59,954 nucleotides of DNA from an uncultured Clostridia bacterium (GTDB lineage: Bacteria; Bacillota; Clostridia; UBA1381). The notes under the pieces were generated by a model. The model worked only from the letters and a program-made list of their open reading frames with translations, was not told where the DNA came from and searched no databases. Positions 23,928-47,258 of the stretch are shown here, piece by piece. Every line of letters begins with the position of its first letter. Position 1 is the stretch's first letter. A program made the translations under genes and the position numbers. The stretch lies in contig CANQYQ010000001.1 in assembly GCA_947628155.1 (NCBI GenBank), positions 1-59,954 on the forward strand, read 5' to 3'.

Positions 23928-23930
23928 TAT

Positions 23931-26856: not shown

Positions 26857-26865
26857 CTCATCCTC

Positions 26866-28142: not shown

Positions 28143-29179
28143 AGCTCCATATACCTCTCCATCGGCAGCTCGCTGAATTTGTGCGCGCCGTTATATACCG
28201 CGAGCGCCCCGTCCAAAAGCGGCAGCAGCATCACACCGCCCGTACCCTCGCCGTAGCGCATATCCGCGCATATCACCGGTTTTAGTCCAATATATTCGAG
28301 GATTTTTCCGCCCGCCGACTCGCCCGATACATGAGACGCGAGCATGTAATGCTTCACCGGCGGATTTATTTTAACGGCGGCCGCCGCCGATACCGCTGAA
28401 ATAAACCCGTCGATAATAACCGGAATTTTATAAACCGCGCCGCCGAGGAACAACCCCGTCATACCCGCGATATCGAGTCCACCTATCTTCGCGGTAAGCT
28501 CCGCAGCTCTGTCCGCGTCGGGTGCGTTCACCGCTATCGCCCGCCTTATCACGTCGATTTTCCGTGCCAATCCCGCGTCGTCAAGGCCCGCACCGCGTCC
28601 GGTGACGCGTTCGGGCGGCAAATCAAGCAAAACGGACGCCATCGCCGACGCGGTCGTCGTATTGCCTATGCCCATTTCTCCCGCGATAATAATTTTCACA
28701 CCGCTAATCATTAAATCCCGGACAATATCCATACCCGCCGCAATCGCGCTCTCCGCCTCCGCTACGCTCATTGCCGGACCTCTTGTGATATTCGCCGTGC
28801 CATACCTCGTCTTTTTCCGCACCGTACCCGGCACATCCGTTATCATGCCGATATCTGCCGCCGTTACGCCCGCGCCGTATACATTCGCCAGCCGATTTAT
28901 TCCCGATACGCCGTCCGCGATCGACCTCGCGACAATTGCCGTCACCGCGCTGGTCGTCTGCGTTACGTTTTCCTCCGTCACGCCGTTGTCCGCGCACATT
29001 ATTACAGCTTCGCGGCGGTCGAGCCGGATGTTCTCGTCTCCGGTAATTCCGGAAATTTTTATGATCGCGTCCTCCAGCAGCCCAAGCCCGCGGATCGGCT
29101 TGGCCACATTGTTCCACCGCTTCCTCGCGCGGGTCATTGCCGCCGCGTCGGGCGGGGTAATTAATTTTATTCTTTCCAT
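28139..29179 (-). CDS. cobT: nicotinate-nucleotide--dimethylbenzimidazole phosphoribosyltransferase
   Basis: Start set at ATG 29179 (MERIKLITPPD; RBS GGGGAG). Motifs: ...KPIRGLGLLEDA..., GEMGIGNTTTASA, and C-terminal YGEGTGG, all typical of CobT. Confidence 0.92.
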   Translation of the reverse strand: MERIKLITPPDAAAMTRARKRWNNVAKPIRGLGLLEDAIIKISGITGDENIRLDRREAVIMCADNGVTEENVTQTTSAVTAIVARSIADGVSGINRLANVYGAGVTAADIGMITDVPGTVRKKTRYGTANITRGPAMSVAEAESAIAAGMDIVRDLMISGVKIIIAGEMGIGNTTTASAMASVLLDLPPERVTGRGAGLDDAGLARKIDVIRRAIAVNAPDADRAAELTAKIGGLDIAGMTGLFLGGAVYKIPVIIDGFISAVSAAAAVKINPPVKHYMLASHVSGESAGGKILEYIGLKPVICADMRYGEGTGGVMLLPLLDGALAVYNGAHKFSELPMERYMEL

Positions 29180-31814: not shown

Positions 31815-32553
31815 TGTATTCCTCCAGAAGCTGTTTTGCTTTGTTTACGTCTATTCCGTCTTCGGCCGGGCGCGTAATGATGAGCGCCGTAACGCCAAGC
31901 TCCTTTGAGGCGGCTATTTTTTCGTCATAGCCGCCGAGCCTGCCGCTGTCCTTTGTCACGATGAATTTTGCGCCCGCTCGCCTCAGATGCGCGATATTTT
32001 TCCGAATTGAAAACGGCCCTTTTTCGGCGATGATTTTATCAAAGCCGTACGCGGCGCATTTTTCGTAAATTCCGTCCGCGTCCAGTACGCGTACCGTGCA
32101 CCGCAGGGAAAAGCCGTTTACGGCGCGAAAGCGCGGAAGCTCCTTGCTGCCTGTCGTCAGCAGTATATTTCCGCCGTGATTATTCAGATACTCGACCACG
32201 GATGGGATATCGTTAAAAAAAATCCCGTCGCCGCGCTTTGCCGTCGTTTCGCGCAGTACGCGGATATATGCCGCGCCCGTTTGAGAACATGCCCGCCGTA
32301 TATTTTCCGTTGCCTCGACCGCATACGGATGAGTCGCGTCAAAAACCGGATCGATATCGTTTTTCGCGATAAATTCCGCCATTTCCGCGGCCGTTTTCCG
32401 TCCCGTTACGGCGTGTATATACGGTGATTTTATAAGCTGCGCCGCGCCGTAGTCCGTAGCCGAGCTCACATACGCGCCGATACGCTTTTTTGCGCAGAAC
32501 CGCGCTAGCTGCCCCCCTTCGGCAGTACCGCCGAAAATCAGTATTTTACACAT
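31798..32553 (-). CDS. cbiJ: cobalt-precorrin-6A reductase
   Basis: Start set at ATG 32553 (MCKILIFGGTAEG). THPYA motif (DATHPYAVEAT) and C-terminal TKDSG are typical of CbiJ/CobK. Confidence 0.88.
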   Translation of the reverse strand: MCKILIFGGTAEGGQLARFCAKKRIGAYVSSATDYGAAQLIKSPYIHAVTGRKTAAEMAEFIAKNDIDPVFDATHPYAVEATENIRRACSQTGAAYIRVLRETTAKRGDGIFFNDIPSVVEYLNNHGGNILLTTGSKELPRFRAVNGFSLRCTVRVLDADGIYEKCAAYGFDKIIAEKGPFSIRKNIAHLRRAGAKFIVTKDSGRLGGYDEKIAASKELGVTALIITRPAEDGIDVNKAKQLLEEYNGQAN

Positions 32554-33274
32554 TTTTATATCCTCTCGGCGTAACCATTCTTCCGTTGATAATTTTCGTC
32601 TCACCGCTGCCGATAAATACGGTCGTGAACATATCCGCGTCAGCGGAGCTTAGTTGCTCAAGCGTAAGTATGCGTGCCGTTTCGCCGTCTCTGCCGATAT
32701 TTTTCACTATGCCGCAGACGGTGGTTTTATCACGGTATTCAAGCAGAATCTCACAGGCGCGGGCAAGGTGAGTTTTCCGCTTGCTTGACGCGGGATTGTA
32801 CAGCGCGATTGCGAAGCCGCCCCGCGCCGCCCCGCGCAGACGCTGTTCGATCACGTTCCGAGGCGTAAGCAAATCGGATAGGCTGATGACCGCGAAATCG
32901 TTTGTCAGCGGCGCGCCCAAAAGCGCCGCGCCGCTTAACGCCGCCGTGACGCCAGGTATAATCTCGACCTCGGCGCCGGGATATTTTTGCGCAAGCGAGA
33001 GCGCGGGCGAGGCCATGCCGTAAACTCCCGCGTCGCCGCTGCAGACCAAAGACACGGTTTTGCCGCCCGCCGCCGCGTTAAACGCAAGCATAATGCGTTT
33101 GCGTTCGCCGCGCATGGGTGTGGTTATAAATTCCTTATTGGGAAAAATTCGTCTCACAAGCTCCGCGTAAACGGTGTATCCGACTATGATATCGCTTTTT
33201 TCAAGCGCCGCTCTCGCGGCAATCGTCATCCCGGCTTCGCCGCCCGGACCTATTCCGACTATATACAGCTTCAT
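32546..33274 (-). CDS. cbiH: cobalt-factor III / precorrin-3B C17-methyltransferase
   Basis: MKLYIVGIGPGG..., SGDAGVYGMA, IIPGVTAA are tetrapyrrole methylase motifs. Its position next to cbiG fits CbiH. Confidence 0.92.
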   Translation of the reverse strand: MKLYIVGIGPGGEAGMTIAARAALEKSDIIVGYTVYAELVRRIFPNKEFITTPMRGERKRIMLAFNAAAGGKTVSLVCSGDAGVYGMASPALSLAQKYPGAEVEIIPGVTAALSGAALLGAPLTNDFAVISLSDLLTPRNVIEQRLRGAARGGFAIALYNPASSKRKTHLARACEILLEYRDKTTVCGIVKNIGRDGETARILTLEQLSSADADMFTTVFIGSGETKIINGRMVTPRGYKNV

Positions 33275-34285
33275 CTATAATTCCCTCGCAAAATCAATAA
33301 GTACATCCTCCTCGGCCGCCGCGAAGGTCATGCCGCCGCGCGCCGTTTTTTTGATGATTATCCTCCCGCCGCCGCAGACAGCGGCTCTTTCGCATACGTT
33401 ATCCGTGCCGGTGATTTTTTTCACAAATTCCGAGCCGATAAATTCACCCGGCGCGGCGTTTAATTCACGCGCCGAATGAAATATGAGCGGAATTTTATTT
33501 TTTCGGCAAAATTCAATAACGGCAGGCTCGTCCTTTTTTAAATCTATCGTATGCACTCCGCCTATTCTGTAAAGCGGCAGATTATTCTGAGCCATGGTAT
33601 CCCGTATAAATTCCGAAAGCCTTTTGGGATCTGTGCCGCGCTTACAGCCTATGCCGACGGAAATGTTTTTCGGAATGAGCCGCAGCGTTATATCAAACGG
33701 TTTTTTATCCTCGCGGCCTATGTAAATCCCGACCCGCGTGTTTTTGCCGAAATATTGCTCCGGTATGTTTATTGCCGTATGATCGCATACAAGACCGATT
33801 TTTTCACCGTCCAGAACCGCCGCCGCGATTTCCTTTGCCGCGCTCACATCGCTTATATGAAGGCTGTTAGCCATGGCAAAGCTGTCGGGAGAAAATTTGC
33901 CGCCGGAATCAGTAGCGGTTGTTATCACCGGAACCGCCCCGATAATTTGGGCGATTTTTTTCGCGAGTGCGTTCGCGCCGCCGACGTGGCCGGACAAAAT
34001 CGGCACGGCGAATCTGCCGGAATCGTCGATTACGATTACAGCCGGGTCGGTCATCTTCGACACGATATGCGGCGCGGCGGCGCGGACGGCGATCCCGCAC
34101 GCGCAGATGAAAACCAGCGCGTCGTATTTTGAAAATATATCGCCTACAAGCTTTTTTAAATCGGAAAAGACCTCCGCGCCGTCCGCGTGCTTGTAAAACA
34201 TATAACGCTCACATTCGATTGAGTCAGCAATTTTTCGTGATAATTTTCCGCCGTTTTCCGTGATTGAAATAATAGCCGCTTTCAT
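33275..34285 (-). CDS. cbiG: cobalt-precorrin-5A hydrolase
   Basis: 336 aa. ...LVFICACGIAVRAAAP...VIVIDDSGRFAVPILSGHVGGAN... and C-terminal VGIGCKRG are CbiG N- and C-domain signatures. Confidence 0.9.
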   Translation of the reverse strand: MKAAIISITENGGKLSRKIADSIECERYMFYKHADGAEVFSDLKKLVGDIFSKYDALVFICACGIAVRAAAPHIVSKMTDPAVIVIDDSGRFAVPILSGHVGGANALAKKIAQIIGAVPVITTATDSGGKFSPDSFAMANSLHISDVSAAKEIAAAVLDGEKIGLVCDHTAINIPEQYFGKNTRVGIYIGREDKKPFDITLRLIPKNISVGIGCKRGTDPKRLSEFIRDTMAQNNLPLYRIGGVHTIDLKKDEPAVIEFCRKNKIPLIFHSARELNAAPGEFIGSEFVKKITGTDNVCERAAVCGGGRIIIKKTARGGMTFAAAEEDVLIDFAREL

Positions 34286-35037
34286 CCTTCCGCCTTCCTG
34301 AACCCTGTTTCAAAACCCGCGTCATAGAGCCTTGAGAGCAAATGATCATTGCCCAGAAAATTCCCGACGCATATAAGCGCGGTTTTTGTTATGCCGTGCT
34401 CCTTTGCCGTTTTATCAAGTGTATCCACCGTGCAGCGGCATATTTTCTCATCCCTCCATGTCGCCTTGTACACGATCGCCGCGGGTGTGTTTTTATCATA
34501 GCCGCCGCGGATCAATTCCTCGGACAGCATGCGCGTTTTTGCCGCGCTTAAAAATATAACCATAGTCGCGTTATGCGCGGCAAGCGCGGCTATGCTCTCG
34601 CGTTCAGGTACGCTTGTCCGTCCCGCCGCGCGCGTTATGATAACCGTTTGTGATACTCCGGGAAGCGTGTATTCCGCCTTCAAGGCTGCCGCCGCGCCGC
34701 TCAACGAGCTTACGCCCGGGCATATTTCATATTCTATGCCGAGATTGTTAAGCGCGTCCGCTTGCTCGCGTATCGCTCCGTAGAGCGATGGGTCGCCCGA
34801 GTGAAGCCGAACCGTCATTTTGCGCGCGGCTTCGGCGCGCGTTATAACATTAATTACATCGTCAAGCGTCATAAACGCGCTGTTGTGAATTTCGCAGCCC
34901 GGTTTTGCGTATTTAAGCAGCTCGGGGTTTACAAGCGAACCGGCGTAGATTATAACGTCCGCGTCCGCGATAAGCCTCGCGCCGCGTATAGTTATCAAAT
35001 CGGTCGCGCCGCAGCCCGCGCCAACAAAATTAACCAT
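34282..35037 (-). CDS. cbiF: cobalt-precorrin-4 C11-methyltransferase
   Basis: MVNFVGAGCGATDLITIRGARLI...RLHSGDPSLYGA...ICPGVSS are CbiF/CobM motifs. Confidence 0.93.
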   Translation of the reverse strand: MVNFVGAGCGATDLITIRGARLIADADVIIYAGSLVNPELLKYAKPGCEIHNSAFMTLDDVINVITRAEAARKMTVRLHSGDPSLYGAIREQADALNNLGIEYEICPGVSSLSGAAAALKAEYTLPGVSQTVIITRAAGRTSVPERESIAALAAHNATMVIFLSAAKTRMLSEELIRGGYDKNTPAAIVYKATWRDEKICRCTVDTLDKTAKEHGITKTALICVGNFLGNDHLLSRLYDAGFETGFRKAEG

Positions 35038-36166
35038 TGTATTCCTCCGTGATTTTTTGTATCATCTCCGCCGCTTCGGGTGTTTGACCTATTACGCCGA
35101 ATTTGTCCGAAAACACCAGCGCCCCAGTTTTTATATTTCCGTTCGCGCGCAAGCCGAGATAATACCGTATACGGCTCATGAGGATTTTTGATGTTTTATC
35201 CAAGATCCCCGCGTCCTTGATAATCGACAGGGCGGCGTCGGCGGTCGCGCAGCCGGGGATCTCCCTTAGAGCTTCGATCTCCGCGCCCGCCATTAGTGCG
35301 CACGTGACAAGCACGTCCATTCGCGCGTCGCCGCGCGACGAATGCGTGTTCATAATTCCCGCGCCCAGCTTTACAAGCTTGCCGATATGTCCGACAATTA
35401 GCGCGCCGCCGAAACCGAGTTCTGCCGCCGTATCGATCGCCTCACCGATGAAATTGGAGCATGTAACACATTTCCCGGCAGCGAACGGCATATGTGTTTT
35501 CAAAAAGCCGCTGCCGTAATTCCCTATTGTGAGAACAAGGTTTTTTATTCCCTCCGCGCGGCGCATTTTCATTTCCGTACGCATCGTTGCGATAATGGCG
35601 TCATTGCTCATCGGCTCGACAATACCGGTCGTGCCGATAATTGAAATGCCGCCTGTTATGCCCATGCGGGGGTTATACGTTTTTTCCGCGGCGCGCGCGC
35701 CGCCGGGGACGAAAATCGTTATTTTTATTCCGCCGGTGTAATTATTTGCCGCGCATTCTTCCGCGACCGCCTCGGTTATCATTTTTCGCGGTACGCTGTT
35801 AATGGCTGCCGCGCCGACCGGCTGGTCGAGTCCGGCTTTGGTGACGATGCCCACGCCTTCGCCGCCATGTATTTCTATACCGTGCGTGGATTTTTCGGCC
35901 CGCGCGTATATAAGCAGACCGTCCGTGGCGTCGGGATCGTCGCCGCCGTCTTTTCTGACGGCGCATACGGCGCCGTTATCGGAAATGTACGCGTCGGAAA
36001 TATCAAGCGACAATGGTATGCCCTTCGGCGTGATAAGCACGGCGGAATCGGGGAATTTGCCGCCTAAAAGCGCGGCTGCCGCCGCCTTTGCCGCCGCGGC
36101 CGCGCATGAGCCGGTCGTGTATCCGCGGCGCAGCCGCTTGCCGTATTTGTATATGTAATTATCCAT
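35030..36166 (-). CDS. cbiD: cobalt-precorrin-5B C1-methyltransferase
   Basis: ...LRRGYTTGSCAAAAAKAA...GGDDPDATDG...GIVEPMS... is the typical CbiD pattern. 378 aa. Confidence 0.93.
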   Translation of the reverse strand: MDNYIYKYGKRLRRGYTTGSCAAAAAKAAAAALLGGKFPDSAVLITPKGIPLSLDISDAYISDNGAVCAVRKDGGDDPDATDGLLIYARAEKSTHGIEIHGGEGVGIVTKAGLDQPVGAAAINSVPRKMITEAVAEECAANNYTGGIKITIFVPGGARAAEKTYNPRMGITGGISIIGTTGIVEPMSNDAIIATMRTEMKMRRAEGIKNLVLTIGNYGSGFLKTHMPFAAGKCVTCSNFIGEAIDTAAELGFGGALIVGHIGKLVKLGAGIMNTHSSRGDARMDVLVTCALMAGAEIEALREIPGCATADAALSIIKDAGILDKTSKILMSRIRYYLGLRANGNIKTGALVFSDKFGVIGQTPEAAEMIQKITEEYNG

Positions 36167-36218
36167 TGTTATGACCTTTATGGGAAATTTTAGTTTTGGG
36201 CCGTACAGACCGATAAAT

Positions 36219-36863
36219 TCATCTCTTAGTGTCGTGTATCATATACAGCAGAGAGTTGCATATCGCGGCGGCGACGGGGCTGCCGCCCTTTCTGCCGTTT
36301 GACACGATATACGGCGCGCCGCTCGCTTTAATCAGTTCCTTTGCCCGCGTGACGTTCACGAATCCAACCGGCACGCCAATCACAAGCGAGGGGGAAATGC
36401 CGCCGCTCTGTGTGAGACCGCGCAGGCGAATGAGCGCTGTCGGGGCGTTGCCTACGGCGAAAATTATATTCTTGTTCCCGTAAAGCTTTGCCGCCTTGTC
36501 CATGGCCGCGGCGGCGCGCGTGGTTCCGTTTGCCGCCGCCCGCTCCGCCACGTCGGGATCGGCCATGAAGCAGTGCGCCTCGCAGTTAAGCGAATATAGC
36601 GCGCGTTTGTTTATGCCGGACAGCGCCATATTCGTGTCAGTCACGATAACCGCGCCGCTTTGTAATGCGGCGATGCCGCGTTTTACGGCATTTTCGGAAA
36701 ACTCCAGGCTTTTAACATAATCAAAATCGGCGGTTGTGTGAATAACGCGCTTGAGCACGGTTCTTTCCGTATCCGTAAGCCACGGTGTTTCGCCTATTTC
36801 CGATTCAATTATTTCCATGCTCCGCCGTTCAATATCGGCGGGACGGATATTTTCAGCTTTCAT
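36219..36863 (-). CDS. cbiC: cobalt-precorrin-8 methylmutase
   Basis: ...VIHTTADFDY..., FAVGNAPTAL, GVPVGFV and GGSPVAAA are CbiC/CobH hallmarks. 214 aa. Confidence 0.93.
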   Translation of the reverse strand: MKAENIRPADIERRSMEIIESEIGETPWLTDTERTVLKRVIHTTADFDYVKSLEFSENAVKRGIAALQSGAVIVTDTNMALSGINKRALYSLNCEAHCFMADPDVAERAAANGTTRAAAAMDKAAKLYGNKNIIFAVGNAPTALIRLRGLTQSGGISPSLVIGVPVGFVNVTRAKELIKASGAPYIVSNGRKGGSPVAAAICNSLLYMIHDTKR

Positions 36864-37395
36864 TTGACCGTTTCCTTTTCCAAATAAATATTACCGCCGC
36901 CAAGACCGCGATTACCGCGGCAGCCGCCGCAATCGCCGCCGGAATCGCGGCCTTCCTGCCAAACGCATTCTTCGGCAGGCCGGATGATTCAAACACAAGC
37001 GTCCTGTCGTACCATTTTTGCTTTTTTATACTCCACGCGGCGCAGTCGATTTCCGTGTCGAGTGCTTCGACCGGAACGGTGTATGTATATTTGCCGCCGC
37101 TGTTTTCGGTGAAATATATACATTCGCTGTCGGGAGCGGCGGACGCTTCAGCGCCTGTGCCCATAAACAGCTTTTCATAGCCCTTGCCGCTTAATGTCAT
37201 TGCCGCCCGCATTTTTCCGCCGGCGATGGTAAGAGTGCAGTCCGCTATACGAAACATCGATGAGCTTGATGTTACGGTAATAGGGTATTCGCCGTCGTTA
37301 AGCTCATCGGCGTATATCGGCCGCTTTTGCGCCGCTATGCATACGGATTGCAGCATCAGCAGCGCCGCGCACAGGCATAATATGATTTTTTTCAT
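36853..37395 (-). CDS. hypothetical exported, C-terminally membrane-anchored protein (paralog of 41789-42211)
   Basis: Start set at ATG 37395 (RBS GGAGGAG). Signal peptide MKKIILCLCAALLMLQSVCIAAQ, a soluble domain of about 120 aa, then a C-terminal TM (AAIPAAIAAAAAVIAVLAAVIFIW) and a basic tail (KRKRSNES). Confidence 0.65.
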   Translation of the reverse strand: MKKIILCLCAALLMLQSVCIAAQKRPIYADELNDGEYPITVTSSSSMFRIADCTLTIAGGKMRAAMTLSGKGYEKLFMGTGAEASAAPDSECIYFTENSGGKYTYTVPVEALDTEIDCAAWSIKKQKWYDRTLVFESSGLPKNAFGRKAAIPAAIAAAAAVIAVLAAVIFIWKRKRSNES

Positions 37396-37475
37396 ATGCT
37401 CCTCCATTAGATTTATGTTTATATGGTCGCGCCGGTTCGGCGATTTGTTAACAATGCTGCGAAAAAAGTTCCGGT

Positions 37476-37930
37476 AACGCCCGCCGTATACGAAATCAAT
37501 CACTTGCGCCCCTTGTTAAAGGGGGAGGCTAACGCCCGCCGTATGCGATTTTCGCTCACGGGAACGCTCTGCTTGCGCCCCTTGTTAAAGGGGAGGCTAA
37601 CGACCGCCATGTGCAATTTCGCTCACGGGGACGCTCTGCTTGCGCCCCTTGTTAAAGGGGAGAGGGCCAACGAAGTTGGCGAGGGGATTCCGCAATCACA
37701 CCAAATCGCTGCAATATGCGATATTTTGCAAAAATGAATCCCTCCGTCATTTGCTCCCTGCGGTCGCAAATGCCACCTCCCTTTGACAAGGGAGGCTAAC
37801 ACTCGCCGTATGCGAAATCACTCACGGGGACGCTCTGCTTACGCCCCTTGTTAAAGGGGAGGCTAACGCCCGCCGTATTCCATATCGTGTTACGGAACAC
37901 GGGCGGCCGATGGCCGCCCCTACGGTGTTT
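37476..37930. repeat. mosaic intergenic repeat cluster inside the cob supra-operon (same family as 19641-20076)
   Basis: Four copies of a 60-70-bp unit, TTGCGCCCCTTGTTAAAGGGGAGGCTAACGCCCGCCGTATGCGA...CTCACGGGGACGCTCTGC, start at 37504, 37573, 37640 and 37849. One MITE-like unit (about 37640-37798) carries the GGGGATTCCGCAAT...GAATCCCTCC core. The terminal hairpin GGGCGGCCGATGGCCGCCC is the reverse complement of 19856-19876. Confidence 0.8.
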
Positions 37931-37960
37931 CCCATACGCAAAAGCGCGGCAAACTAAAAT

Positions 37961-38860
37961 CTATTTCCCCGACGCGGCGATTGCGTCGGCGACATGGTTT
38001 ACATAAATCGTCTGAATTTCCGGAAATTCGCCCATACCGCTCAATACGCATTCAACATCGAAGCCGGCCTTTTCAAACTCAGTTTTCCAGGAGCCGTCCT
38101 CGTCGCCGGCCATATCGTTATTGGCATGGTCGCCGGCGACGACCATGAGCGGTTCAAGCACAACCTTTTTATAGCCTCCGGCCTTTACTGCCGCTATCGT
38201 ATCTTCAAGCGTCGGAGTCGATTCGACCGTGCCGATAAAATAATTGCTTTGGCCCTTGCCGGTAAACTCTTGCTGAAGCTTTGTATATGCCTCATTCGCT
38301 TCATGCTCCGTGCCGTGACCCATAAATACGATTGCCGTTCCGTCTGAATTATACTGTGATGTTTCGGCAGTGAGCGCGTCCGCGACCGCGCTGTAGTCCT
38401 TATCGGAGGACAGGAGCGGTTTGCCCATAACGATCGTGTCGAATGAATCCTTGTACGAATCCGCCGCGGCCGCCAAATCATCATATTCAAATCCGCTCAT
38501 AACATGCGTCGGCTGAACGACGACGTCCTTAACCCCATCGGCGGCAAGTCTGTCGAACGCCTCCTCAACATTGTCAATCTCGAGCCCGTCGCGCTCCTTC
38601 AGCTTGTCGATTATGATTTGACTTGTAAACGCGCGGCGGACGTCATAGTCGGGGTACGCGTCCGAGATTGCGTTTTCAACGGCGCCGATGGTTTTATCGC
38701 GGCTGTCGTTATAGCTTGTGCCGAAGCTTACGACGAGAATAGCGGGTTTTTCACCGCCCGCCTCGGCGCCGGGATCATCGGCTGTTTGCTGCCCGCCGCA
38801 GCCCGATAATGCAAGCGCTCCCAAAAGAACGGAGCAGATAAGTAATTTCTTGGTTTTCAT
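37961..38860 (-). CDS. cbiK: CbiK-type sirohydrochlorin cobaltochelatase homolog with a lipoprotein signal peptide (extracytoplasmic)
   Basis: MKTKKLLICSVLLGALALSGC is a lipobox, followed by a low-complexity linker. The CbiK fold signatures are ILVVSFGTSY, VVQPTHVMSGFEY, FMGHGTEH and LMVVAGDHANND. Both catalytic-type His residues are present. Confidence 0.85.
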   Translation of the reverse strand: MKTKKLLICSVLLGALALSGCGGQQTADDPGAEAGGEKPAILVVSFGTSYNDSRDKTIGAVENAISDAYPDYDVRRAFTSQIIIDKLKERDGLEIDNVEEAFDRLAADGVKDVVVQPTHVMSGFEYDDLAAAADSYKDSFDTIVMGKPLLSSDKDYSAVADALTAETSQYNSDGTAIVFMGHGTEHEANEAYTKLQQEFTGKGQSNYFIGTVESTPTLEDTIAAVKAGGYKKVVLEPLMVVAGDHANNDMAGDEDGSWKTEFEKAGFDVECVLSGMGEFPEIQTIYVNHVADAIAASGK

Positions 38861-38875
38861 AATAATGTCTCCTTT

Positions 38876-39628
38876 TTAATTTTTAAAATATTGTGCGTAC
38901 AAATCACGCGGCAGGCCGAATAATCCGCATAAAACATCGGGAGTGAAAATATCCGGCGGCGCGCCCGCCTTGAATATTCCGCCGTTTTTTATACAAATTG
39001 TATAATCGGAAATTATCCTTGCCATGTCAAGCTCATGTATTGATACGACCGCCGCGATTTTTTCATCATTCACAAGCGCGCGGAGCGTTTCCAGAAACGC
39101 GATTTTGTGGTGAATGTCAAGATATGAGGTCGGTTCGTCGAGAAGCAGGATCTTCGGTTCTTGACATATCGCTTTCGCGAGCATCACCCTTTGCCGCTGC
39201 CCGTCGCTTATTTGCGAAAAATCCGTGTCCGCAAAGTCTGCGGTTTCGGTTGCAAAAATCGCTTTATCGACAGCGCGTTTATCGTTTTGTGTAAGCCGCC
39301 CCAGCCGTCCCGTGTGCGGATAGCGTCCCGTTTCCACAACCTCACGGCAGGTCATAAGCTCCGCTCCGACACGCTCCGTAAGCATCACGGCAAGCTGCTT
39401 GGCGCGCTCGTTCGGCGTGATGCGTTCCGCGCCGCGTCCGTTAATAAGCACCGTTCCGCCGCGTTTTTTTAGCGTTCCGGCAAGCGTTTTTAAGAGAGTG
39501 GATTTGCCCGAGCCGTTAGGCCCGATAACAGTCATTATTTCGCCGCCGTCTACGCTGAAGGAAATATGCGACGCGACTGTGTGAGAATAGCCGATCGCTA
39601 AATCCCGAACCTCAAGATATTTTGTTAT
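38876..39628 (-). CDS. ABC transporter ATP-binding protein (FepC/BtuD-type) with an apparent non-canonical ATA start
   Basis: Walker A GPNGSGKST, signature ISDGQRQR, Walker B ILLLDEPTSYLD. The reading frame is open back to 39628, and the N-terminal ITKYLEVRDLAIGYSH...ISFSVDGGEIM segment is required for an NBD. The only in-frame ATG (39535) sits just before Walker A. AGGAGGG lies 6 nt upstream of ATA 39628. Confidence 0.75.
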   Translation of the reverse strand: MTKYLEVRDLAIGYSHTVASHISFSVDGGEIMTVIGPNGSGKSTLLKTLAGTLKKRGGTVLINGRGAERITPNERAKQLAVMLTERVGAELMTCREVVETGRYPHTGRLGRLTQNDKRAVDKAIFATETADFADTDFSQISDGQRQRVMLAKAICQEPKILLLDEPTSYLDIHHKIAFLETLRALVNDEKIAAVVSIHELDMARIISDYTICIKNGGIFKAGAPPDIFTPDVLCGLFGLPRDLYAQYFKN

Positions 39629-40629
39629 ACTCTATCCCTCCTTTGTCTGAGCATGGCGGCGATCACCGCCGGCGCTCCGAAAATTGCCGTGACCGTGCTT
39701 ATACTAAGCTCCGTCGGCGCGAATGCCGTCCGAGATATTAAATCGCACAGCATACAGAATACGCTGCCGCCCAAGAAGCACGACGGTATGAGAACGACCG
39801 GCTTTGATGTTTTAAGCGCCGTCCTCACAATGTGCGGCACTGCTATGCCGACGAATGAAATCGGCCCGGCGAACGCCGTAACGCATGCCGACAGCAGTCC
39901 GGAAAGAAGTATAAGCGCGGCGCGGAGCGGCTTGATTCTTACGCCTAAATTTTGCGCGTAGCTTTCTCCCAGACGATATGCGCCTATCGGTTTTGCCAAA
40001 AGTAGCGTGAGCGCCAATCCGGACGCCGTGACGACGGCGCTCGCCCGTACATTGTCCATATTCATGCCGGAAAACGTGCCCAGCGACCAGCTGCGAAGAT
40101 TGACTATATCGGAATCCGCCGCGAAGGTTACGACGAAATCGGTCATCGCCGAGCAAATATAGCCTATCATTACGCCGCATACCACAAGCGTTGACATTGA
40201 GCCGACGCTGCGTGATACCGTAAGCACCAATGCCAGTGACGCGAGAGAGCCGATAAACGCGGCGCTTATTAACGCGCCCGATGTGAGCGCGGCGCGGCTT
40301 TCAGCCGCCGCGACCATTATAAGCGCGACAGTGAGCTTCGCGCCGGAGGATACGCCGAGCACAAACGGTCCGGCTATGGGGTTACGGAAGAACGTCTGCA
40401 AAAGATATCCGGACAGGGACAGCGCCCCGCCCAATATAAGCGCGGCCATTGCGCGCGGCACGCGGATCTTCATAATTATATCCGACGCGGTATCCGCGCC
40501 GCCGCGAAATAATATTTTTAATGCTTCCGCCGGTGATATGTCCGCGCCGCCTATCGTGAGATTTAGATACAGCGCGGCCAGCAGGGCGGCGCTTAACACT
40601 GTAAATACGGCGGCGTATCTTAGCTTCAT
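39625..40629 (-). CDS. FecCD-family ABC permease (BtuC-like)
   Basis: 334-aa polytopic protein with a typical FecCD pattern (...RVPR..AALILGGALSLSG...QTFFRNPIAGP...GPISFVGIAVPHI.R). Confidence 0.9.
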   Translation of the reverse strand: MKLRYAAVFTVLSAALLAALYLNLTIGGADISPAEALKILFRGGADTASDIIMKIRVPRAMAALILGGALSLSGYLLQTFFRNPIAGPFVLGVSSGAKLTVALIMVAAAESRAALTSGALISAAFIGSLASLALVLTVSRSVGSMSTLVVCGVMIGYICSAMTDFVVTFAADSDIVNLRSWSLGTFSGMNMDNVRASAVVTASGLALTLLLAKPIGAYRLGESYAQNLGVRIKPLRAALILLSGLLSACVTAFAGPISFVGIAVPHIVRTALKTSKPVVLIPSCFLGGSVFCMLCDLISRTAFAPTELSISTVTAIFGAPAVIAAMLRQRRDRV

Positions 40630-41792
40630 TTGACATCGCTCCTCTCAAGCCGAAACAGATATACGGGCGGATGACTTTCGGTATCGCCGGCGAAGACCGC
40701 GCGAAGATCCTCCAATACCGCGCCGAGATCCATCGTTTCCTGATACAGACTTTCGCGGGTGCACCATACATCCCCGGTACGGACGGCTTTGAAATCCGCG
40801 AGAAGCTCATTTTTCGCAATCATTTCATCAATTGAGTGCACCTCGCCGCCTATTGTGCTGTTGTATATTATAATATCCGCGTCCTTGGCCGTTTTGTAAA
40901 ATTCCTCCGGCTCAAGCTTGATAGTGGATAACCGGTCGTCGTTTTCGAGATGGGTAAATACATTGCGGCCGCCCGCCATTTCCATCATCCGTGATACGTA
41001 GTCGCTTGATTTGCGGGTCACGGCTTGTCCGCTGCCGTTTATGTAAAAGAACGCGGCGGTTTTTCCGGTGTCGGCGCACGACGCCGCCTCAAGCCGCTCC
41101 GCCTGTTCCTTCATCAGTATATCGGCCTTATCCGCCTCGTCTAAAATTTCGGCATATACGCGGATCCACTCGCTTCGCCCGAGCGGGTGCGTTTCGTAGC
41201 TTGAATAATCGGTGAGCACGGTTATCCCCAAATCCTCCAGCTTCTCCTTTACATCGGGCGCGTAGTCGATCATTGTGGACTGTATCGATAAATCACAGCC
41301 GTTTGTAAGCAGCATTTCGTAATCCGGCGCGCTGTAATTGCCGGCGTAGAGCATATCGCCGCTCTCCATCGCCCTTCGCGCGTAATCGATGTACCATTCG
41401 TCCGCCTCGGAACCGGAAAATTTAATCGCATTGCCGCGCCCGAGCGAGTCGAACAAATCCATTGCGGCGGTGGCGGCAAGGTATATATTGCCTATCGGAC
41501 GATTGATTATTTTTATGTCATCGTCGATCCCGTCCGGCGCGCCCGCGCCCTCGGGAACAATTAAGAACCGATCTCCGTTCCCGATATAGATCATGGAATA
41601 TCCTTCATCGCAGCGGTCAATTGTAAATTGCTCCGCATATGCCGTACAGACTCGTTCGGTAAATCGTATGCCGTCAATTTCATAAGGGATTTCGGGAACT
41701 CCGCGTTTCGGCGCGCATCCAAATAAGGTCATTATGCCGAATATGAGCGCGGCTTTGCATAATAAAGCCGCCGTTGTTTTTATTATTTTCAT
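40626..41792 (-). CDS. ABC substrate-binding lipoprotein (class III periplasmic-binding fold, BtuF/FhuD-like)
   Basis: Start set at ATG 41792 (ATGA overlap with the upstream stop). Signal/lipobox MKIIKTTAALLCKAALIFGIMTLFGC. Its position upstream of the FecCD permease and ATPase fits this role. Confidence 0.85.
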   Translation of the reverse strand: MKIIKTTAALLCKAALIFGIMTLFGCAPKRGVPEIPYEIDGIRFTERVCTAYAEQFTIDRCDEGYSMIYIGNGDRFLIVPEGAGAPDGIDDDIKIINRPIGNIYLAATAAMDLFDSLGRGNAIKFSGSEADEWYIDYARRAMESGDMLYAGNYSAPDYEMLLTNGCDLSIQSTMIDYAPDVKEKLEDLGITVLTDYSSYETHPLGRSEWIRVYAEILDEADKADILMKEQAERLEAASCADTGKTAAFFYINGSGQAVTRKSSDYVSRMMEMAGGRNVFTHLENDDRLSTIKLEPEEFYKTAKDADIIIYNSTIGGEVHSIDEMIAKNELLADFKAVRTGDVWCTRESLYQETMDLGAVLEDLRAVFAGDTESHPPVYLFRLERSDVK

Positions 41793-42211
41793 TTTGAGCG
41801 TCTCCGTTTCATCCAAACCGCGGCTGCCGCGATAATTACGGCCGCCGAAATCCCGCCGATAAGAATGACGTTCGGCGCGGTATCCGCGGCCTTGATCGAG
41901 GCGCTGTCGAACCGAAGCGAATATTCAATCATATGCGGCTCGCTCATAGCCGTTGTTTCGGCGAGCACGGGAATATCCGTATCCGCCGCCGGGATCTCCA
42001 CCTTAAACCGCGAATTTCCGCCCGTATTTATGGGATAATATCCGTGCCCGTCTATTTCCATATAATCATAATTCGGGCTGCTCCATTCAATCACGGCGGC
42101 CGCGCGGCCGTCCTTGATTTCCATATCCGCGGGAGATTTTATTTGTGCCCTTCCGCTGCCGCCGGTCAGTGTTACATCAATTGTATAGCTGCCGTCCGCT
42201 GAATTTTCCAT
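41789..42211 (-). CDS. hypothetical C-terminally membrane-anchored protein, first gene after the B12 riboswitch (paralog of 36853-37395)
   Basis: Start set at ATG 42211 (RBS GGAGGA). MENSADGSYTIDVTLTGGSG... has no recognisable signal peptide. C-terminal TM VILIGGISAAVIIAAAAVW plus a basic tail MKRRRSK. Confidence 0.6.
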   Translation of the reverse strand: MENSADGSYTIDVTLTGGSGRAQIKSPADMEIKDGRAAAVIEWSSPNYDYMEIDGHGYYPINTGGNSRFKVEIPAADTDIPVLAETTAMSEPHMIEYSLRFDSASIKAADTAPNVILIGGISAAVIIAAAAVWMKRRRSK

Positions 42212-42270
42212 AATATGATCCTCCAAAATAAAAACGCCTTTACCATAAGTAAAAGCGCAGCAAAAAACAC

Positions 42271-42300
42271 ATCCGCGAAATACGGATTTTTCCGGGTGTA
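42271..42300 (-). terminator. candidate riboswitch expression-platform terminator
   Basis: On the minus strand: AAAAATCCG-tatttcg-CGGAT-gtg-TTTTTT, between the B12 box and the first start codon. Confidence 0.45.
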
Positions 42301-42321
42301 CCGCCAATTACTCGTGGCTTT

Positions 42322-42520
42322 TTTCGTACCGAACAAAGGGCAGGTCTCCCGGCTCATACATCAGGCGTTTCAAAAGAGCCTTCCCGGTTTTACCCAGTGG
42401 CGTAATTCTCCGAAACTACGTAATCACGGTGACGAGTTCGCGCGGGATTTTCACCCGCTTCCCTTTTCACCTGAACCAACTCCGGAAACTCCGGAATCTC
42501 AGGCACCCTTCGTCATTATT
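42322..42520 (-). promoter_or_regulatory. cobalamin (B12) riboswitch
   Basis: The minus strand reads ...GGTTCAGGTGAAAAGGGAAGCGGGTGAAAATCCCGCGC...GCCACTGGGTAAAACCGGGAAGGC...GAGCCGGGAGACCTGCC. These are the conserved GGUGAAAAGGGAA / GUGAAAAUCC core and a B12 box (AGCCGGGAGACCTGCC). Confidence 0.88.
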
Positions 42521-42533
42521 TAATTGTGAATGT

Positions 42534-42562
42534 ATTATACCACACGATCCGAAAATTGTCAA
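42534..42562 (-). promoter_or_regulatory. consensus sigma-A promoter driving the riboswitch and cob supra-operon
   Basis: On the minus strand: TTGACA (42562-42557), a 17-nt spacer, TATAAT (42539-42534). Confidence 0.65.
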
Positions 42563-42646: not shown

Positions 42647-43420
42647 TTACTTAATCTGTAATCTAATACGGTCGGCCACCATAGCGATGAACTCCGAATT
42701 TGTAGGCTTTCCCTTACCGGTATGGATGGTGTACCCGAATATTTCGTTCATAGTCTCAGGCTTGCCTCTGCTCCACGCAACCTCAATAGAATGGCGGATG
42801 GCTCGTTCAACGCGGCTTGCGGTCGTATTATAAGCCTTTGCGATATCGGGGTAAAGCTGTTTGGTGATGAAATTCAGCAGATCCATATTTTCCACAACCA
42901 TCATAATCGCGCTGCGGATGTACTGATATCCTTTGATGTGTGCGGGAACTCCGAGTTCATGGATGAATTCCGTTACAATAGTCTCAAGGTCGTAGTCCTT
43001 ATTTTGGGGCAGGGCCTCAGGGACGCTTGCTTTTGACGGCTTTACCGCATGCGTGAATTCACGGATCGTGTCGCACACTCTTTCGGGTGACTGAGGCTTT
43101 AACAGGTAATAATCAGCGCCGAGGTTAAGCATAGTCTCAACCGTTCTTACAAGCGTTGAAATCGAATATACTATAACGATTGGTTTTTTCGGAAATTCCG
43201 CTGTTCGGAGACGTTTTAATACGCCTATCCCGTCAAGCTCCGGCATTACCATATCAAGTATCAAAACATCCGGCTCGATTTCCTTGATACGCGCTAACGC
43301 TTCATTCCCGTTTTCGGCTGTCGTAACTTCCATATCGGGCTGTGCGCCGATATACTCAGACAGCTCTTTTGTCAGTTCCCGGTTGTCATCTGCGACTAAT
43401 ACAGATATTAAGTTATTCAT
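42647..43420 (-). CDS. spo0A: sporulation master regulator Spo0A
   Basis: Receiver domain (VLVADDN...[14 protein letters not shown]). The Spo0A-specific C-terminal DNA-binding domain has [19 protein letters not shown] and [15 protein letters not shown]. Confidence 0.95.
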
Positions 43421-44398: not shown

Positions 44399-44785
44399 GT
44401 GGAACACTTCAAAAAGCTGCCGGACGCGGAGCTTGAGATTATGAAGGTGGTCTGGCACAATGCCAACCCTATCGCGACGAGCGAAATAAAGCGCATAATC
44501 GACGCGGAGGGCATAAACCAATGGACGCAGTCAACGATGCAGACGCTTATAAACAGGCTTATCGGCAAAGGATTTTTAGCGAAAGACAAGCGCGGGAAGG
44601 AGTATATATATACCGCGCTTGTGAACGAAACGGAATATGCGGAGGTTGAAAACGAGTTATTCCTTAAAAAGATGTACGGGAACTCCGTCACAAGCTTCAT
44701 GCGCGCCCTTTTCGACAGCCGCAAAATAAGCGACGCTGACATTGACGAGCTGGAAAAGCTGTTTAAGGAAAAGAGAAATGACTGA
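44399..44785 (+). CDS. BlaI/MecI/CopY-family transcriptional repressor
   Basis: GTG start after AAGGAGG. LPDAELEIMKVVW......TSEI.......W...T..TLINRL..KGFL is a typical winged-helix penicillinase-repressor pattern. 128 aa. Confidence 0.9.
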   Translation: MEHFKKLPDAELEIMKVVWHNANPIATSEIKRIIDAEGINQWTQSTMQTLINRLIGKGFLAKDKRGKEYIYTALVNETEYAEVENELFLKKMYGNSVTSFMRALFDSRKISDADIDELEKLFKEKRND

Positions 44786-47258
44786 TTTTTTAAAGCAATT
44801 ATTCATTCAAACCGCCGTGTCGTCGGCGAAAATGTCGGTGATCGTCATACTGCTTTTATGCCTGACAATTCCCGTGACGAAGCGCTACCGCGCGGGCTGG
44901 CGATATTATTCATGGCTTGCGGTAATGCTAGTGTTTATGATACCGTTTTCTATGCTCGGCATAAGCTTTAAGGCGGAGAATCGGGCGCTTACTCAGAACG
45001 CGGTAAAAACGGGCGAATGGATAAGAGCTCACACGCCGATGTACGAAGTGACGGAGGAAAATCCGTTCTATTGGGAAACCGATGACGGAGAGCCGGCGTC
45101 ACCGGCTTCGGAGCCGACGGCGACTTACCGCAGACAGATCGATATAACGCTGATTTTATCTATAGTATGGCTTATCGCGGCGGTGATATTTTTTGCGGAG
45201 CATATACGGCGGTATATCGTCTTTTTGTCGGCGGTGAAGCGGAGATCGGAGCCGGTTGAGGACGGGGAAATACTATCGGCGCTTTCTGAGGAAAAACGGC
45301 GCATGGGGATCAATGCGGAGATCCCCGCGCGTGTATCCCCTGTAATAAACACGCCGATGCTCACGGGGGTATTCAGGCCGCTGCTGCTTCTGCCGCAAAG
45401 CGGGTTTGATTTTGACGAGCTGTGTCTTATATTTTGCCATGAGCTGACGCATTATAAGCGGCGCGACATTTGGTACCAGTTCATAATTCTCATATTCCTG
45501 TCGCTTCATTGGTTTAATCCGTTTGCCTACGTTATGGCGAAGGCGGCGGAGCTGGACGGCGAAACGTCGTGCGATGAGGCGGTGCTTGACCACAGACCGT
45601 ATGAAACACGGGTGTTTTACGGTGAAATGCTTTTGAAATTTTTAAGGATAAGCAATCAGAAACGGTCATATATGACCACGACGTTTTTTGGAGGTAAAAA
45701 GGATATGAGTAAGAGATTAACATTAATTGCAAGCAAAACGGTAAGGAAAAAGGGTACGGCGGCAATGGCCGCGCTTCTGACCGTGACGATCGGAGCGTCG
45801 GTTACAGCCGCCGCGGCGCAGCCGTGGGATGAGGAAATGCTGAAATACTTTAACGATCCCACGCAGGAATTAATGGACATGGTTGACGAAAATGTGGCAC
45901 GTCCGCAGGCGAGAGCCGAGAACAACGGAACGGTCGTTGAAATTCGTCAGACGATAATTGACGAGCACCAGTTCGCGGTATTGTTTGACGTAACGGCGCC
46001 GGAGGGTACGGATCTGACGGGAGACACATATCCGGGCTTCCTCAGTATAACCTGTGATCCAATCGGCTCGGACAGCAAATACTGCGGCGGCGGCGGTCCG
46101 CGCGAAAGAATAAGCGTTGAGGGAAATAAAGCTGCGTATGTTTATACCGGATATTTAGTGGACACCGAATCGTCCCTGCCGGAAACAGCGGCGTCATATG
46201 AGATGCGGTTTTCCTTCAATAACATATACCGAAATATTCCGGGAGTGAAGGAGGAGGATAACGAGCCTATCGCGGAGTGTACCTTTGACTTCCCATGGGA
46301 GGTGCAATATACCGATATATCGGTCGATTACGCGCCGGAGGTACCCGTAACTCTGTCGGACGGAACACGATCGACGGTTAAGCAGATAGAAATATCGCCG
46401 CTGTCCGCGGTTGTATATTTAACAAATGCCGGACAGACTCTCAACCTCAGCACCGATATTGCGAAAGCGGCGCTTCATATGAAGGACGGTACCGACATTA
46501 TCCTTGGTTCCGAATCGGATGACAATGGGATGGGATTATTCAGACCGGAGAATCATTCCGTAATTCTGGACGGCGACGCGGACGCAAATCTGTTTATGCC
46601 CATACTGATGATCGGGCGGCTGTTTAACAGGATTATCGACGTTTCGGAATGCGAGAGCGTCACTATAGGCGGCACGACGATACGTCTTGATGAGATGAGT
46701 CCGGTAAACAGAGTAGATATAAACTACGATCCGATCATATCCGATTGGGCGAGGAACGATATAAAGGACGCGATTTCGAGGAATATTATCGGCCTTTATG
46801 ACGGTGAAGGTGATTTTACCCAAAATGTTACGCGCGTAAATTTCTGCTCGTACGCATACCGTGTGCTTGTGATAAACAAAAGCATGGAGGAGAAGGATTA
46901 TTTCAAGATATATGAAAATCCGTACGAGGACGCGCTCAGCAATGAGGCAATTGCCTTTTATCATGCGGGTATCATGACCGGCAAGGGCGAAAAGACCTTT
47001 GCGCCGGAGGATCATTTGACGCGTGAGGAAGCGGCGGCGATTATATACCGCATGATGGAGTATATGAAAAAACCGCTTGACAGTACGGCGGCTCCCGAAT
47101 ACGAGGACGCGGACGAAATTTCCGATTGGGCGAAAAACGCGGTGGCCGCGGTCAGCGCGGCGGGGATCATGTCCGGAGACGGCGTGAAGTTCGATCCAAA
47201 GGGAGAATATACAATTGAACAAGCTGTCGCGACGCTTTTGAGGTTAATAGAAAATTAA
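44778..47258 (+). CDS. BlaR1/M56-family membrane metalloprotease sensor with a large non-PBP extracellular region and C-terminal SLH-like repeats
   Basis: Start set at ATG 44778 (overlaps the blaI-like stop). N-terminal TM helices and the HExxH motif in FCHELTHYKRRD. An additional TM follows (AAMAALLTVTIGASVTAAAA), then about 350 aa of an unrecognised domain. The C-terminus has SDWARNDI.../SDWAKNAVAAVSAAGIMSGDG..FDP SLH-type repeats. Confidence 0.85.
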   Translation: MTDFLKQLFIQTAVSSAKMSVIVILLLCLTIPVTKRYRAGWRYYSWLAVMLVFMIPFSMLGISFKAENRALTQNAVKTGEWIRAHTPMYEVTEENPFYWETDDGEPASPASEPTATYRRQIDITLILSIVWLIAAVIFFAEHIRRYIVFLSAVKRRSEPVEDGEILSALSEEKRRMGINAEIPARVSPVINTPMLTGVFRPLLLLPQSGFDFDELCLIFCHELTHYKRRDIWYQFIILIFLSLHWFNPFAYVMAKAAELDGETSCDEAVLDHRPYETRVFYGEMLLKFLRISNQKRSYMTTTFFGGKKDMSKRLTLIASKTVRKKGTAAMAALLTVTIGASVTAAAAQPWDEEMLKYFNDPTQELMDMVDENVARPQARAENNGTVVEIRQTIIDEHQFAVLFDVTAPEGTDLTGDTYPGFLSITCDPIGSDSKYCGGGGPRERISVEGNKAAYVYTGYLVDTESSLPETAASYEMRFSFNNIYRNIPGVKEEDNEPIAECTFDFPWEVQYTDISVDYAPEVPVTLSDGTRSTVKQIEISPLSAVVYLTNAGQTLNLSTDIAKAALHMKDGTDIILGSESDDNGMGLFRPENHSVILDGDADANLFMPILMIGRLFNRIIDVSECESVTIGGTTIRLDEMSPVNRVDINYDPIISDWARNDIKDAISRNIIGLYDGEGDFTQNVTRVNFCSYAYRVLVINKSMEEKDYFKIYENPYEDALSNEAIAFYHAGIMTGKGEKTFAPEDHLTREEAAAIIYRMMEYMKKPLDSTAAPEYEDADEISDWAKNAVAAVSAAGIMSGDGVKFDPKGEYTIEQAVATLLRLIEN

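Follow-up and report, generated by a model that had tools for sequence, protein, structure and literature searches.

In a 59,954-nucleotide (nt) stretch of DNA from an uncultured Clostridia bacterium (UBA1381 lineage; GenBank assembly GCA_947628155.1, contig CANQYQ010000001.1, positions 1 to 59,954), referred to here as the window, the minus strand carries a B12-riboswitch-controlled module that encodes a small protein, A, a substrate-binding lipoprotein, a FecCD-family permease, an ATP-binding cassette (ABC) ATPase, an exported chelatase of the CbiK type and, beyond a cluster of repeats, a second small protein, B, followed by cbiC and further genes of B12 synthesis. A prediction made from the sequence alone (the original prediction) had listed these elements in this order, and all of them lie where it placed them; it regarded A and B as paralogous, C-terminally anchored proteins of unknown family and as candidates for the capture of corrinoids or other metallo-tetrapyrroles at the cell surface. 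Upstream of A, a sigma-70-type promoter (42534-42562, minus strand; TTGACA-17 nt-TATAAT with a TG extension) agrees with the consensus at 12 of 12 positions, and the cobalamin riboswitch, originally placed at about 42322-42520, was recovered on the minus strand as an RF00174 aptamer at 42322-42525, covering the full model (1-189) with 103.5 bits (E 7.7e-25) against a gathering score of 31.5. A pattern scan located an expression platform at 42234-42287 on the same strand, composed of two terminator-like hairpins (42287-42271 and 42258-42234) that are each followed by a U-tract and stand directly before the ribosome-binding site (RBS) of A; these hairpins probably act as a B12-dependent terminator. 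As the aptamer is the sole riboswitch of the window, about 20 kb look like one B12-controlled unit.

A (41789-42211, minus strand) has 140 residues, and its open reading frame (ORF), RBS, AlphaFold model and hydropathy delineate a NEAT-fold domain (residues ~5-108), a transmembrane helix (~114-134) and a KRRRSK tail. B (36853-37395, minus strand) has 180 residues, comprising a signal peptide (1-22), a NEAT-fold domain (~30-140), a transmembrane helix (~150-173) and a KRKRSNES tail, and its stop codon overlaps the cbiC start by 11 nt. The single hydrophobic helix with a basic tail at both C-termini and the presence of an N-terminal signal peptide in B only had been described correctly, as inspection of the sequences confirmed. 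The GGAGG RBS of A lies 8 nt 5' of the ATG at 42211; a TTG at 42307, which would lengthen A by 32 residues, was rejected as its start because the extension overlaps the terminator hairpins and does not resemble a signal peptide, and the RBS and the shared start of orthologues likewise speak for the ATG.

The original prediction had aligned A with B by eye, and this was borne out by pairwise BLASTP (E 1e-4, 24% identity over 113 columns) and by hhalign of the two family profiles, which were trimmed to the domains and freed of fusion proteins (probability 97.4%, E 9.3e-12 over 100 columns). An hhalign run on untrimmed family alignments was discarded, because B-A fusions in the B alignment made the A part match itself. 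A and B are homologous by these comparisons. Their relatives form 403 clusters for A and 748 for B at 90% identity, in which the A family is invariant at G17, G18, G20, S26, P27, W43, S45, Y48, D49, M51, T86, A88, M89, S90, P92, H93 and Y97, and the B family at S43-S46, M47, F48, M62, G70, G72, Y73, S122, W128, Y129, D130, R131 and F135, with C118, A119 and A120 nearly invariant (90% or more).

The NEAT domain is an eight-stranded immunoglobulin-like beta-sandwich of about 120 residues, and structural models together with profile searches indicate that A and B are strongly diverged members of this fold. The AlphaFold models reached predicted local distance difference test scores of 84.5 for A (above 90 within the domain) and 89.4 for B. 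When these were compared with the PDB using Foldseek, the 50 matches listed for A were all NEAT domains, including IsdX1 with an E of 3e-5 and a template-modelling score of 0.70 (target), while the top matches of B were IsdX1 (1.1e-4), Hbp2, IsdA and Shp. Neither A nor B itself matched the Pfam NEAT family (PF05031), even at E 1. Among the homologues of A, however, 12 of 35 did so (best E 5.6e-9), and the IsdX1 and IsdX2 NEAT domains were the best matches of the A profile among PDB sequences (E 0.045-0.23). Homologues of B scored 14-20 bits with Pfam NEAT, under its gathering score of 32.8, and the B profile retrieved no NEAT chain and nothing relevant from the PDB sequences. Matches of A and B to CsgH, Orbi_VP7 and a C-terminal sorting domain, all below the Pfam or NCBIfam cut-offs, were dismissed as noise. 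The identification is based on the Pfam matches of the A relatives, the PDB matches of the A profile, the AlphaFold models and their Foldseek matches. The description of A and B as an unknown family can thus be replaced by that of diverged NEAT-fold domains, of which PF05031 partly catches family A, and Foldseek places both in the NEAT/Shp class of surface tetrapyrrole binders rather than in a family unrelated to tetrapyrroles.

Both proteins lack the haem-ligating YxxxY motif and the SxxxxY lip of canonical NEAT domains. In the register set by the common ...FD end of strand beta8 (IsdX2-N5, SMNYHHFYDVQIQFD), the YxxxY motif of this strand, which supplies the axial tyrosine ligand and a hydrogen-bonding tyrosine, is absent from A, where E91 (a variable column) and I95 take its place, and from B, which has K125 and Y129 at the two tyrosine positions. 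A instead has the invariant M89, H93 and Y97 on the same face. The SxxxxY motif of the 3-10 helix lip gives way to GGSG(R/K)A in A, which is two residues shorter and keeps the serine aligned with loss of the tyrosine, and to an invariant SSSSMF in B. The invariant residues of both families fall on two elements of the NEAT pocket, namely this lip, which follows strand 1, and the beta7-beta8 hairpin, which reads TxAMSxPHxxxY in A and CAAWS...WYDR in B. This suggests that, as far as models and alignments go, A and B have ligand pockets that are conserved yet different.

A genome scan with the A profile, taking one genome per species, found a relative encoded in at least 598 stretches, out of 600 retrieved, and the best 80 of these were compared as loci. 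Each locus is a stretch of ~20 kb from a separate species genome, and gene content refers to what lies within it; the sources are Oscillospiraceae, Lachnospiraceae, Faecalibacterium, Gemmiger, Blautia, Roseburia, Christensenellaceae, Erysipelotrichales and Coriobacteriia. As a rule, the riboswitch is followed by the genes for exported CbiK, for B-A and then for the binding protein, the permease and the ATPase. The three importer genes follow wherever the contig reaches far enough, in essentially all 80 loci, and of the 77 loci whose upstream region is present, 71 have a B12 riboswitch immediately 5' of the module on the same strand, so that the proposed co-conservation of A and B with importer and riboswitch was upheld. 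A model built from eight riboswitches found 70 of the 71, and Rfam, used in addition, contributed an AdoCbl-type element in locus L031. The model found no riboswitch at L081, an uninformative locus whose contig begins ~1 kb before a giant NEAT gene. At L017 (7396-7752) and L078 (7279-7932), the interval between the module and a divergent cbi operon contains two B12 riboswitches, one on each strand and placed back to back, and one of the L017 pair is of the AdoCbl-II and the other of the classical cobalamin type.

The same loci revealed extensive gene fusion. B and A form a single polypeptide in 62 cases; by architecture, there are 49 B-A proteins, 4 B-A proteins with a transmembrane helix, 5 CbiK-B-A fusions, 4 B-A-binding protein fusions and 1 A-binding protein fusion, and 13 loci have separate genes for B and for A with its transmembrane helix. 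The domains of fusions invariably follow the sequence CbiK, B, A, binding protein. A circular permutation of the usual arrangement, in which B and A are split and each has a transmembrane anchor, is found in the window and in five relatives (L001, L002, L004, L007 and L009). Arrays of up to ~8 domains also occur, with a binding-protein domain at the end; in the giant proteins P0262, P0244, P0270, P0290 and P0334, four to eight NEAT-like domains of the A/B type are combined with a binding-protein-like domain at the C-terminus, and the gene for P0262 (1605 residues; L081 1092-5909) is followed by Peripla_BP_2, FecCD, ABC and CbiD genes. Beyond these loci, a profile search of 1.84 billion representatives yielded 1,684 family members (50% identity), 1,354 of them at E <=1e-10. 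The family is found in Oscillospiraceae, Lachnospiraceae, Faecalibacterium, Blautia, Roseburia, Christensenellaceae and Coriobacteriia, and its database names, where there are any, read 'hypothetical protein' or are mislabels.

The other co-directional neighbours in the loci are genes of B12 synthesis (TP_methylase 16, CbiB 9, CobC 7, CobU 6). The 25 commonest neighbour families include no haem-uptake or haem-degradation family, haem oxygenase or cobalt transporter. Modules that have A alone and lack CbiK adjoin cobQ-cobT-cobU-cobS (L020, L035 and L060).

CbiK (37961-38860, minus strand) is a class II chelatase of the CbiK type (Pfam 1.7e-89, 300 bits) with the lipobox LSGC of a lipoprotein. 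It is similar to Salmonella enterica CbiK (E 1e-55), to Porphyromonas gingivalis FetB (E 1e-54, in an alignment that spans the lipoprotein signal peptide) and to the periplasmic CbiK of Desulfovibrio vulgaris (CbiKP; E 7e-45). In alignments with the CbiK, FetB and CbiKP chains of known structure, its H182, E213 and H245 fall on their GHG, VE and DHA motifs; these residues presumably correspond to H145, E175 and H207 of S. enterica CbiK, and are invariant in all 74 CbiKs of the modules, nearly all of which have a signal-peptide-like N-terminus. Judged by its residues, the active site of the window CbiK is intact. A, B and CbiK occur together in 72 loci and A without B or CbiK in 5; the three apparent exceptions to the pairing of B with CbiK are two contig-edge cases and one probable weak cross-hit. 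B and CbiK are therefore gained and lost together, and the exported CbiK is an obligate partner of B, an importance that the original prediction undervalued.

Some loci have unusual CbiK proteins. L006, from Eggerthellaceae, encodes an exported CbiK of 434 residues with an extra N-terminal domain as well as a signal-less CbiK of 263 residues (8137-9441 and 16171-16962), and also carries a second gene for B-A with a transmembrane helix. In the CbiKs of L006, L014, L017, L029, L044, L071 and L074, an extra conserved segment of ~60-90 residues (…AALIDAIYVQERT…C…AKAAWDALTDAQKELV…DTGDASKD) is found between the signal peptide and the chelatase domain.

Export signals accompany most proteins of the family. 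A hydrophobic N-terminal segment is present in 70, and a lipobox in 52, of the 71 ORFs that encode both domains with at least 15 residues ahead of the first one. Anchoring is by transmembrane helix and basic tail in the window and by lipobox in most relatives. LPXTG is absent from A and B, and their C-terminal sorting-domain matches in NCBIfam are weak and not significant. A conserved (L/I)PxxA after B was considered as a sortase signal and rejected, since it is kept in B-A fusions where no helix follows; this makes it part of the B domain. The absence of a signal peptide from A extends to a whole clade (L001, L004, L007, L009, L020, L059, L060 and L062), in which the helix and basic tail are kept. 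Sisters of this clade carry signal peptides or lipoboxes, most of them as part of exported B-A lipoproteins, and the signal peptide of A appears to have been lost more than once. The N-terminal domain of A is acidic (18 D/E against 8 K/R), and an orientation with the N-terminus outside is the consistent reading. From its orthologues and the fusions, A of the window genome, which has no signal peptide, would likewise be exposed at the surface.

The importer belongs to the general type II families FecCD and Peripla_BP_2. The binding protein (40626-41792, minus strand; Peripla_BP_2, Pfam 3.3e-28) has the lipobox LFGC and an N-terminal extension of ~70 residues, and most likely starts at the ATG at 41792, which overlaps the stop codon of A as ATGA. 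It had been called BtuF-like: the Peripla_BP_2 assignment holds, whereas NCBIfam gave no BtuF match and only weak matches to other models (IsdE 3.9e-4), and no PDB sequence was matched, including any solved BtuF or IsdE. The permease (39625-40629, minus strand; Pfam 1e-75) is BtuC-like, with BtuC as its best NCBIfam model at 198 bits against a cut-off of 334. The ATPase (38876-39628, minus strand; Pfam ABC_tran) scores best with the NCBIfam corrinoid ABC transporter ATPase model, at 199.6 against a cut-off of 537. Its conserved N-terminus (LEVRDLAIGY...GGEIM) is encoded in frame 5' of the first ATG (39535-39634, minus strand), in a reading frame that begins behind a TAG and has no ATG, GTG or TTG in this part; AGGAGG followed by an ATA at 39628, which overlaps the permease stop codon, probably marks the start, as an AUA start codon or a base error, and would give a protein of 250 residues.

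Between cbiK and B, a repeat search found five copies of a ~67-nt repeat (core CCCCTTGTTAAAGGGGAGGCTAAC) at 37455-37883. No further copy of the core occurs in the window outside this cluster, and a pattern scan found no terminator pattern on the minus strand within it; transcription would read through. As the spacing between cbiK and B is only 4 nt in relatives with the same gene order, the cluster is a recent insertion inside the operon. After B come ~15 co-directional cbi and cob genes (21937-36863, minus strand; Pfam and NCBIfam scans), in the order cbiC, D, F, G, H, J, ET, A, cobT, U, S, cobC-cbiB, cobD, cobQ and cobO; the same scans found no cbiL, cytoplasmic cbiK or cbiX, or cobalt transporter in this operon, and no hem gene lies anywhere in the 60-kb window. 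One ORF (24956-26581) joins a CobC-like histidine-phosphatase domain to CbiB. Directly upstream of the operon is spo0A, with a BlaR1-type M56 peptidase that has SLH domains nearby (42647-43420 and 44742-47258), and GH127 and RGL11 enzymes are encoded elsewhere in the window. The host is a spore-forming, plant-polysaccharide-degrading member of Clostridia.

What is directly established comprises the NEAT fold, the homology between A and B, the riboswitch, conserved synteny, gene fusions, and signals for export on B, CbiK and the binding protein. On this footing we consider it rather probable that the module is a B12-repressed, Isd-like surface relay for a cobalt tetrapyrrole, with a corrinoid as the favoured cargo. 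A and B would be tethered to the outer face of the cytoplasmic membrane. The colinearity of the genes and of the fusions points to a path from exported CbiK to B, A, the binding protein and then the permease and ATPase, the direction of transfer being the likely one rather than an observed one. The cargo would be a complete or incomplete corrinoid (a cobamide, cobinamide or a molecule of the cobyric-acid type) that feeds the cob and cbi enzymes encoded downstream, and within this relay complete or late corrinoids are the most likely. When intracellular B12 is high, the riboswitch would terminate transcription before A and turn the ~20-kb unit off. Corrinoids are the cargo of type II ABC importers governed by B12 riboswitches (PMC6593275), and such importers, the riboswitch, the cob and cbi neighbours and the A-only modules beside cobQ-cobT-cobU-cobS are the reasons for favouring a corrinoid. 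Every computational test named in the original prediction favoured its interpretation: the fold, the co-conservation and the fusions support a candidate role in capturing corrinoids or tetrapyrroles at the surface, in which corrinoid binding is suggested by context and a precursor tetrapyrrole or other metalloporphyrin is also possible.

Several observations weigh against a corrinoid relay. To our knowledge, known NEAT domains bind only haem, a metalloporphyrin or haemoglobin, and a complete cobamide, which carries a nucleotide loop, takes up more room than haem. The host apparently makes B12 itself, and its need for uptake is not obvious, although B12 producers commonly carry riboswitch-controlled importers. 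The binding protein, permease and ATPase all score under the NCBIfam BtuFCD equivalog cut-offs, and the first lacks the sequence matches to solved BtuF or IsdE noted above. A chelatase with an invariant active site has no evident job if the cargo already contains cobalt, and the exposure of A, signal-less in the window genome as in its whole clade, is deduced from its relatives.

The chelatase is at the centre of the main rival explanation, extracellular cobalt insertion, to which we would give a small though real chance. Here surface CbiK would insert Co2+ into a scavenged tetrapyrrole that lacks a metal, be it a corrinoid or a compound of the sirohydrochlorin/factor II type; B and A would carry the product to the importer, and the cell would acquire cobalt and macrocycle jointly and enter the pathway at CbiL. 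The invariance of the catalytic H/E/H in 74 of 74 exported copies fits such a role, as do the presence of CbiK and B together in 72 loci and of neither in 5, the five CbiK-B-A fusions, and the lack of a cytoplasmic cbiK or cbiX or a cobalt transporter both in the window operon and among the 25 commonest neighbour families. Moreover, the surface chelatase FetB of P. gingivalis, which is exported, has activity with Co and Mn (PMC13065792), and the 'tetrapyrrole precursor salvagers', mostly host-associated Firmicutes, take up their precursor by an unknown route (Shelton et al., PMC6461909). On the other hand, cbiL is missing from the operon too, and cbiK, cbiL and the hem genes may lie elsewhere, as is commonly the case; the L006 locus has its second, signal-less CbiK; the A-only modules that lack CbiK fit late corrinoid salvage; and free sirohydrochlorin in the gut is undocumented in the literature examined. 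In a further version that is possible, if unlikely, the Gram-positive surface would house an extracellular workshop in which CbiK metalates or demetalates a scavenged macrocycle, B docks on CbiK and A docks on the binding protein, with the NEAT domains channelling a cobalt tetrapyrrole to the importer so that cobalt and ring are acquired together. If true, this would supply the uptake route of the precursor salvagers and a non-haem ligand class for NEAT domains.

The other alternatives are less likely. One or both domains might bind no small ligand and instead provide docking sites or act as adaptors, in the way that IsdH-N1/N2 and IsdB-N1 engage haemoglobin, with B holding CbiK or an external B12 carrier protein, for example, and A docking on the binding protein. 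NEAT domains without YxxxY often bind proteins instead of haem (PMC4143258), and the strict coupling of B to CbiK and the adjacency of A to the binding protein in fusions would suit this. We nevertheless find pure docking improbable, since the invariant positions are concentrated in the lip and in the beta7-beta8 hairpin, the elements that form the pocket, and include Met89 and His93 of A, which are potential metal ligands, and since fusion to the partner would make docking redundant. Still less probable is that the cargo is haem or another iron or manganese porphyrin, as for canonical NEAT domains, FetB and CbiKP, with only a secondary link to the B12 riboswitch. In its favour are the NEAT fold of both proteins, the binding of Co-protoporphyrin by IsdA (3qzp, among the Foldseek matches listed for A), the metalloporphyrin binding of the exported CbiK homologues FetB and CbiKP, and the weak match to IsdE that is the best of the binding protein in NCBIfam. 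The axial tyrosine of YxxxY is absent from both families, however (a variable residue in A, Lys125 in B), the riboswitch is present in 71 of 77 loci, B12-synthesis genes are the commonest neighbours and haem uptake or degradation is not among the 25 commonest families, and there is no sortase signal. Least probable of all is that A of the signal-less clade is tail-anchored and faces the cytoplasm, receiving cargo from the importer on the inside, for which the missing signal peptide and the GGAGG-supported start speak, and against which stand the basic tail after the helix, which predicts C-in and N-out, the orthologues that combine a signal peptide or lipobox with helix and tail, the occurrence of A mostly within exported B-A lipoproteins, and the acidic N-domain, which suits N-tail translocation.

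If the corrinoid relay that we favour is correct, the system would be the corrinoid counterpart of the Isd/Shp haem relays. The Isd, IsdX and Shp-HtsA (SiaA) relays of Staphylococcus, Bacillus anthracis, Listeria and Streptococcus have the eight-stranded NEAT beta-sandwich in common with the present module, and share with it surface tethering, one to many domains per protein, an adjacent Peripla_BP_2 lipoprotein with a FecCD/ABC importer and, as proposed here, the handing of a tetrapyrrole from domain to domain and on to the binding protein. The module differs in lacking YxxxY and in having GGSGRA (A) and SSSSMF (B) for the SxxxxY lip, in being anchored by a transmembrane helix or lipid rather than by sortase through LPXTG, and in having an obligate exported chelatase, cbi and cob neighbours in place of haem oxygenases, and strictly anaerobic commensal hosts. 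It is also controlled by a B12 riboswitch rather than by iron as Isd is; Fur boxes were not searched for. In a survey of NEAT domains, Honsa et al. (2014) described clostridial domains without YXXXY that have a conserved Met in an extended beta7-beta8 loop, along with outliers from Eggerthella and Clostridium methylpentosum that lack both motifs, for which an unidentified alternative role was suggested (PMC4143258). These outliers probably belong to the present A/B family. The clostridial group is different, consisting mostly of LPXTG proteins of Clostridium sensu stricto that were read as haem binders, with no mention of B12 or riboswitches (PMC4143258).

Each of the other partial precedents lacks some component of the module. 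The genes of P. gingivalis FetB/IhtB and D. vulgaris CbiKP adjoin ABC importers, and these proteins resemble the window CbiK in their catalytic residues and, for FetB, in an alignable signal peptide; they differ in having no described NEAT partner, in their haem, iron and Mn-porphyrin roles, which are not B12 roles, and in their Gram-negative envelopes. FetB and CbiKP bind metalated porphyrins (PMC13065792). In operon-2 of Dehalobacter restrictus, FecCD-type transporters and a cobaltochelatase stand behind a riboswitch, and starvation for corrinoids induces the operon 346-fold (PMC4285132); the chelatase there is of class I (CobN/ChlID), CbiZ is encoded as well, and NEAT-fold proteins and an exported CbiK are both absent. 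In Bacteroides, the surface lipoproteins BtuG, BtuH, BtuJ and BtuK are encoded in B12-riboswitch loci, and a role in capturing cobamides and handing them on to the transporter has been proposed for them (PMC13616437). The likeness of A and B to these accessory surface proteins of riboswitch-controlled uptake loci is functional only: the Bacteroides proteins act at the outer membrane with the TonB-dependent BtuB, and homology of A or B to BtuG, BtuH or BtuJ was indicated by no Pfam family and by none of the 50 Foldseek matches listed per model.

A NEAT relay with a type II importer is already known, as is an exported CbiK beside such an importer; B12 regulation, altered pocket motifs and an obligate chelatase partner in combination have not been described before, and in the searchable literature no paper was found that connects NEAT domains with B12, corrinoids or CbiK. 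A review of September 2026 calls extracellular cobamide capture in Gram-positive Firmicutes 'entirely uncharacterized' (PMC13616437). Gut communities are shaped by competition for B12 and its analogues, and capture machinery has been detailed only for Bacteroidota. Taken together, our analysis suggests that hundreds of gut anaerobes share a module of NEAT-fold proteins, an exported CbiK and an ABC importer by which B12-type molecules are probably captured at the surface of Gram-positive cells, and its obligate exported chelatase poses a further question, the task of such an enzyme on the outside of the cell. Should A and B bind corrinoids, these would constitute a second ligand class for NEAT domains, the principle of the Isd relay would reach vitamins, and the module would offer a testable candidate for corrinoid acquisition by the dominant Gram-positive anaerobes of the gut.

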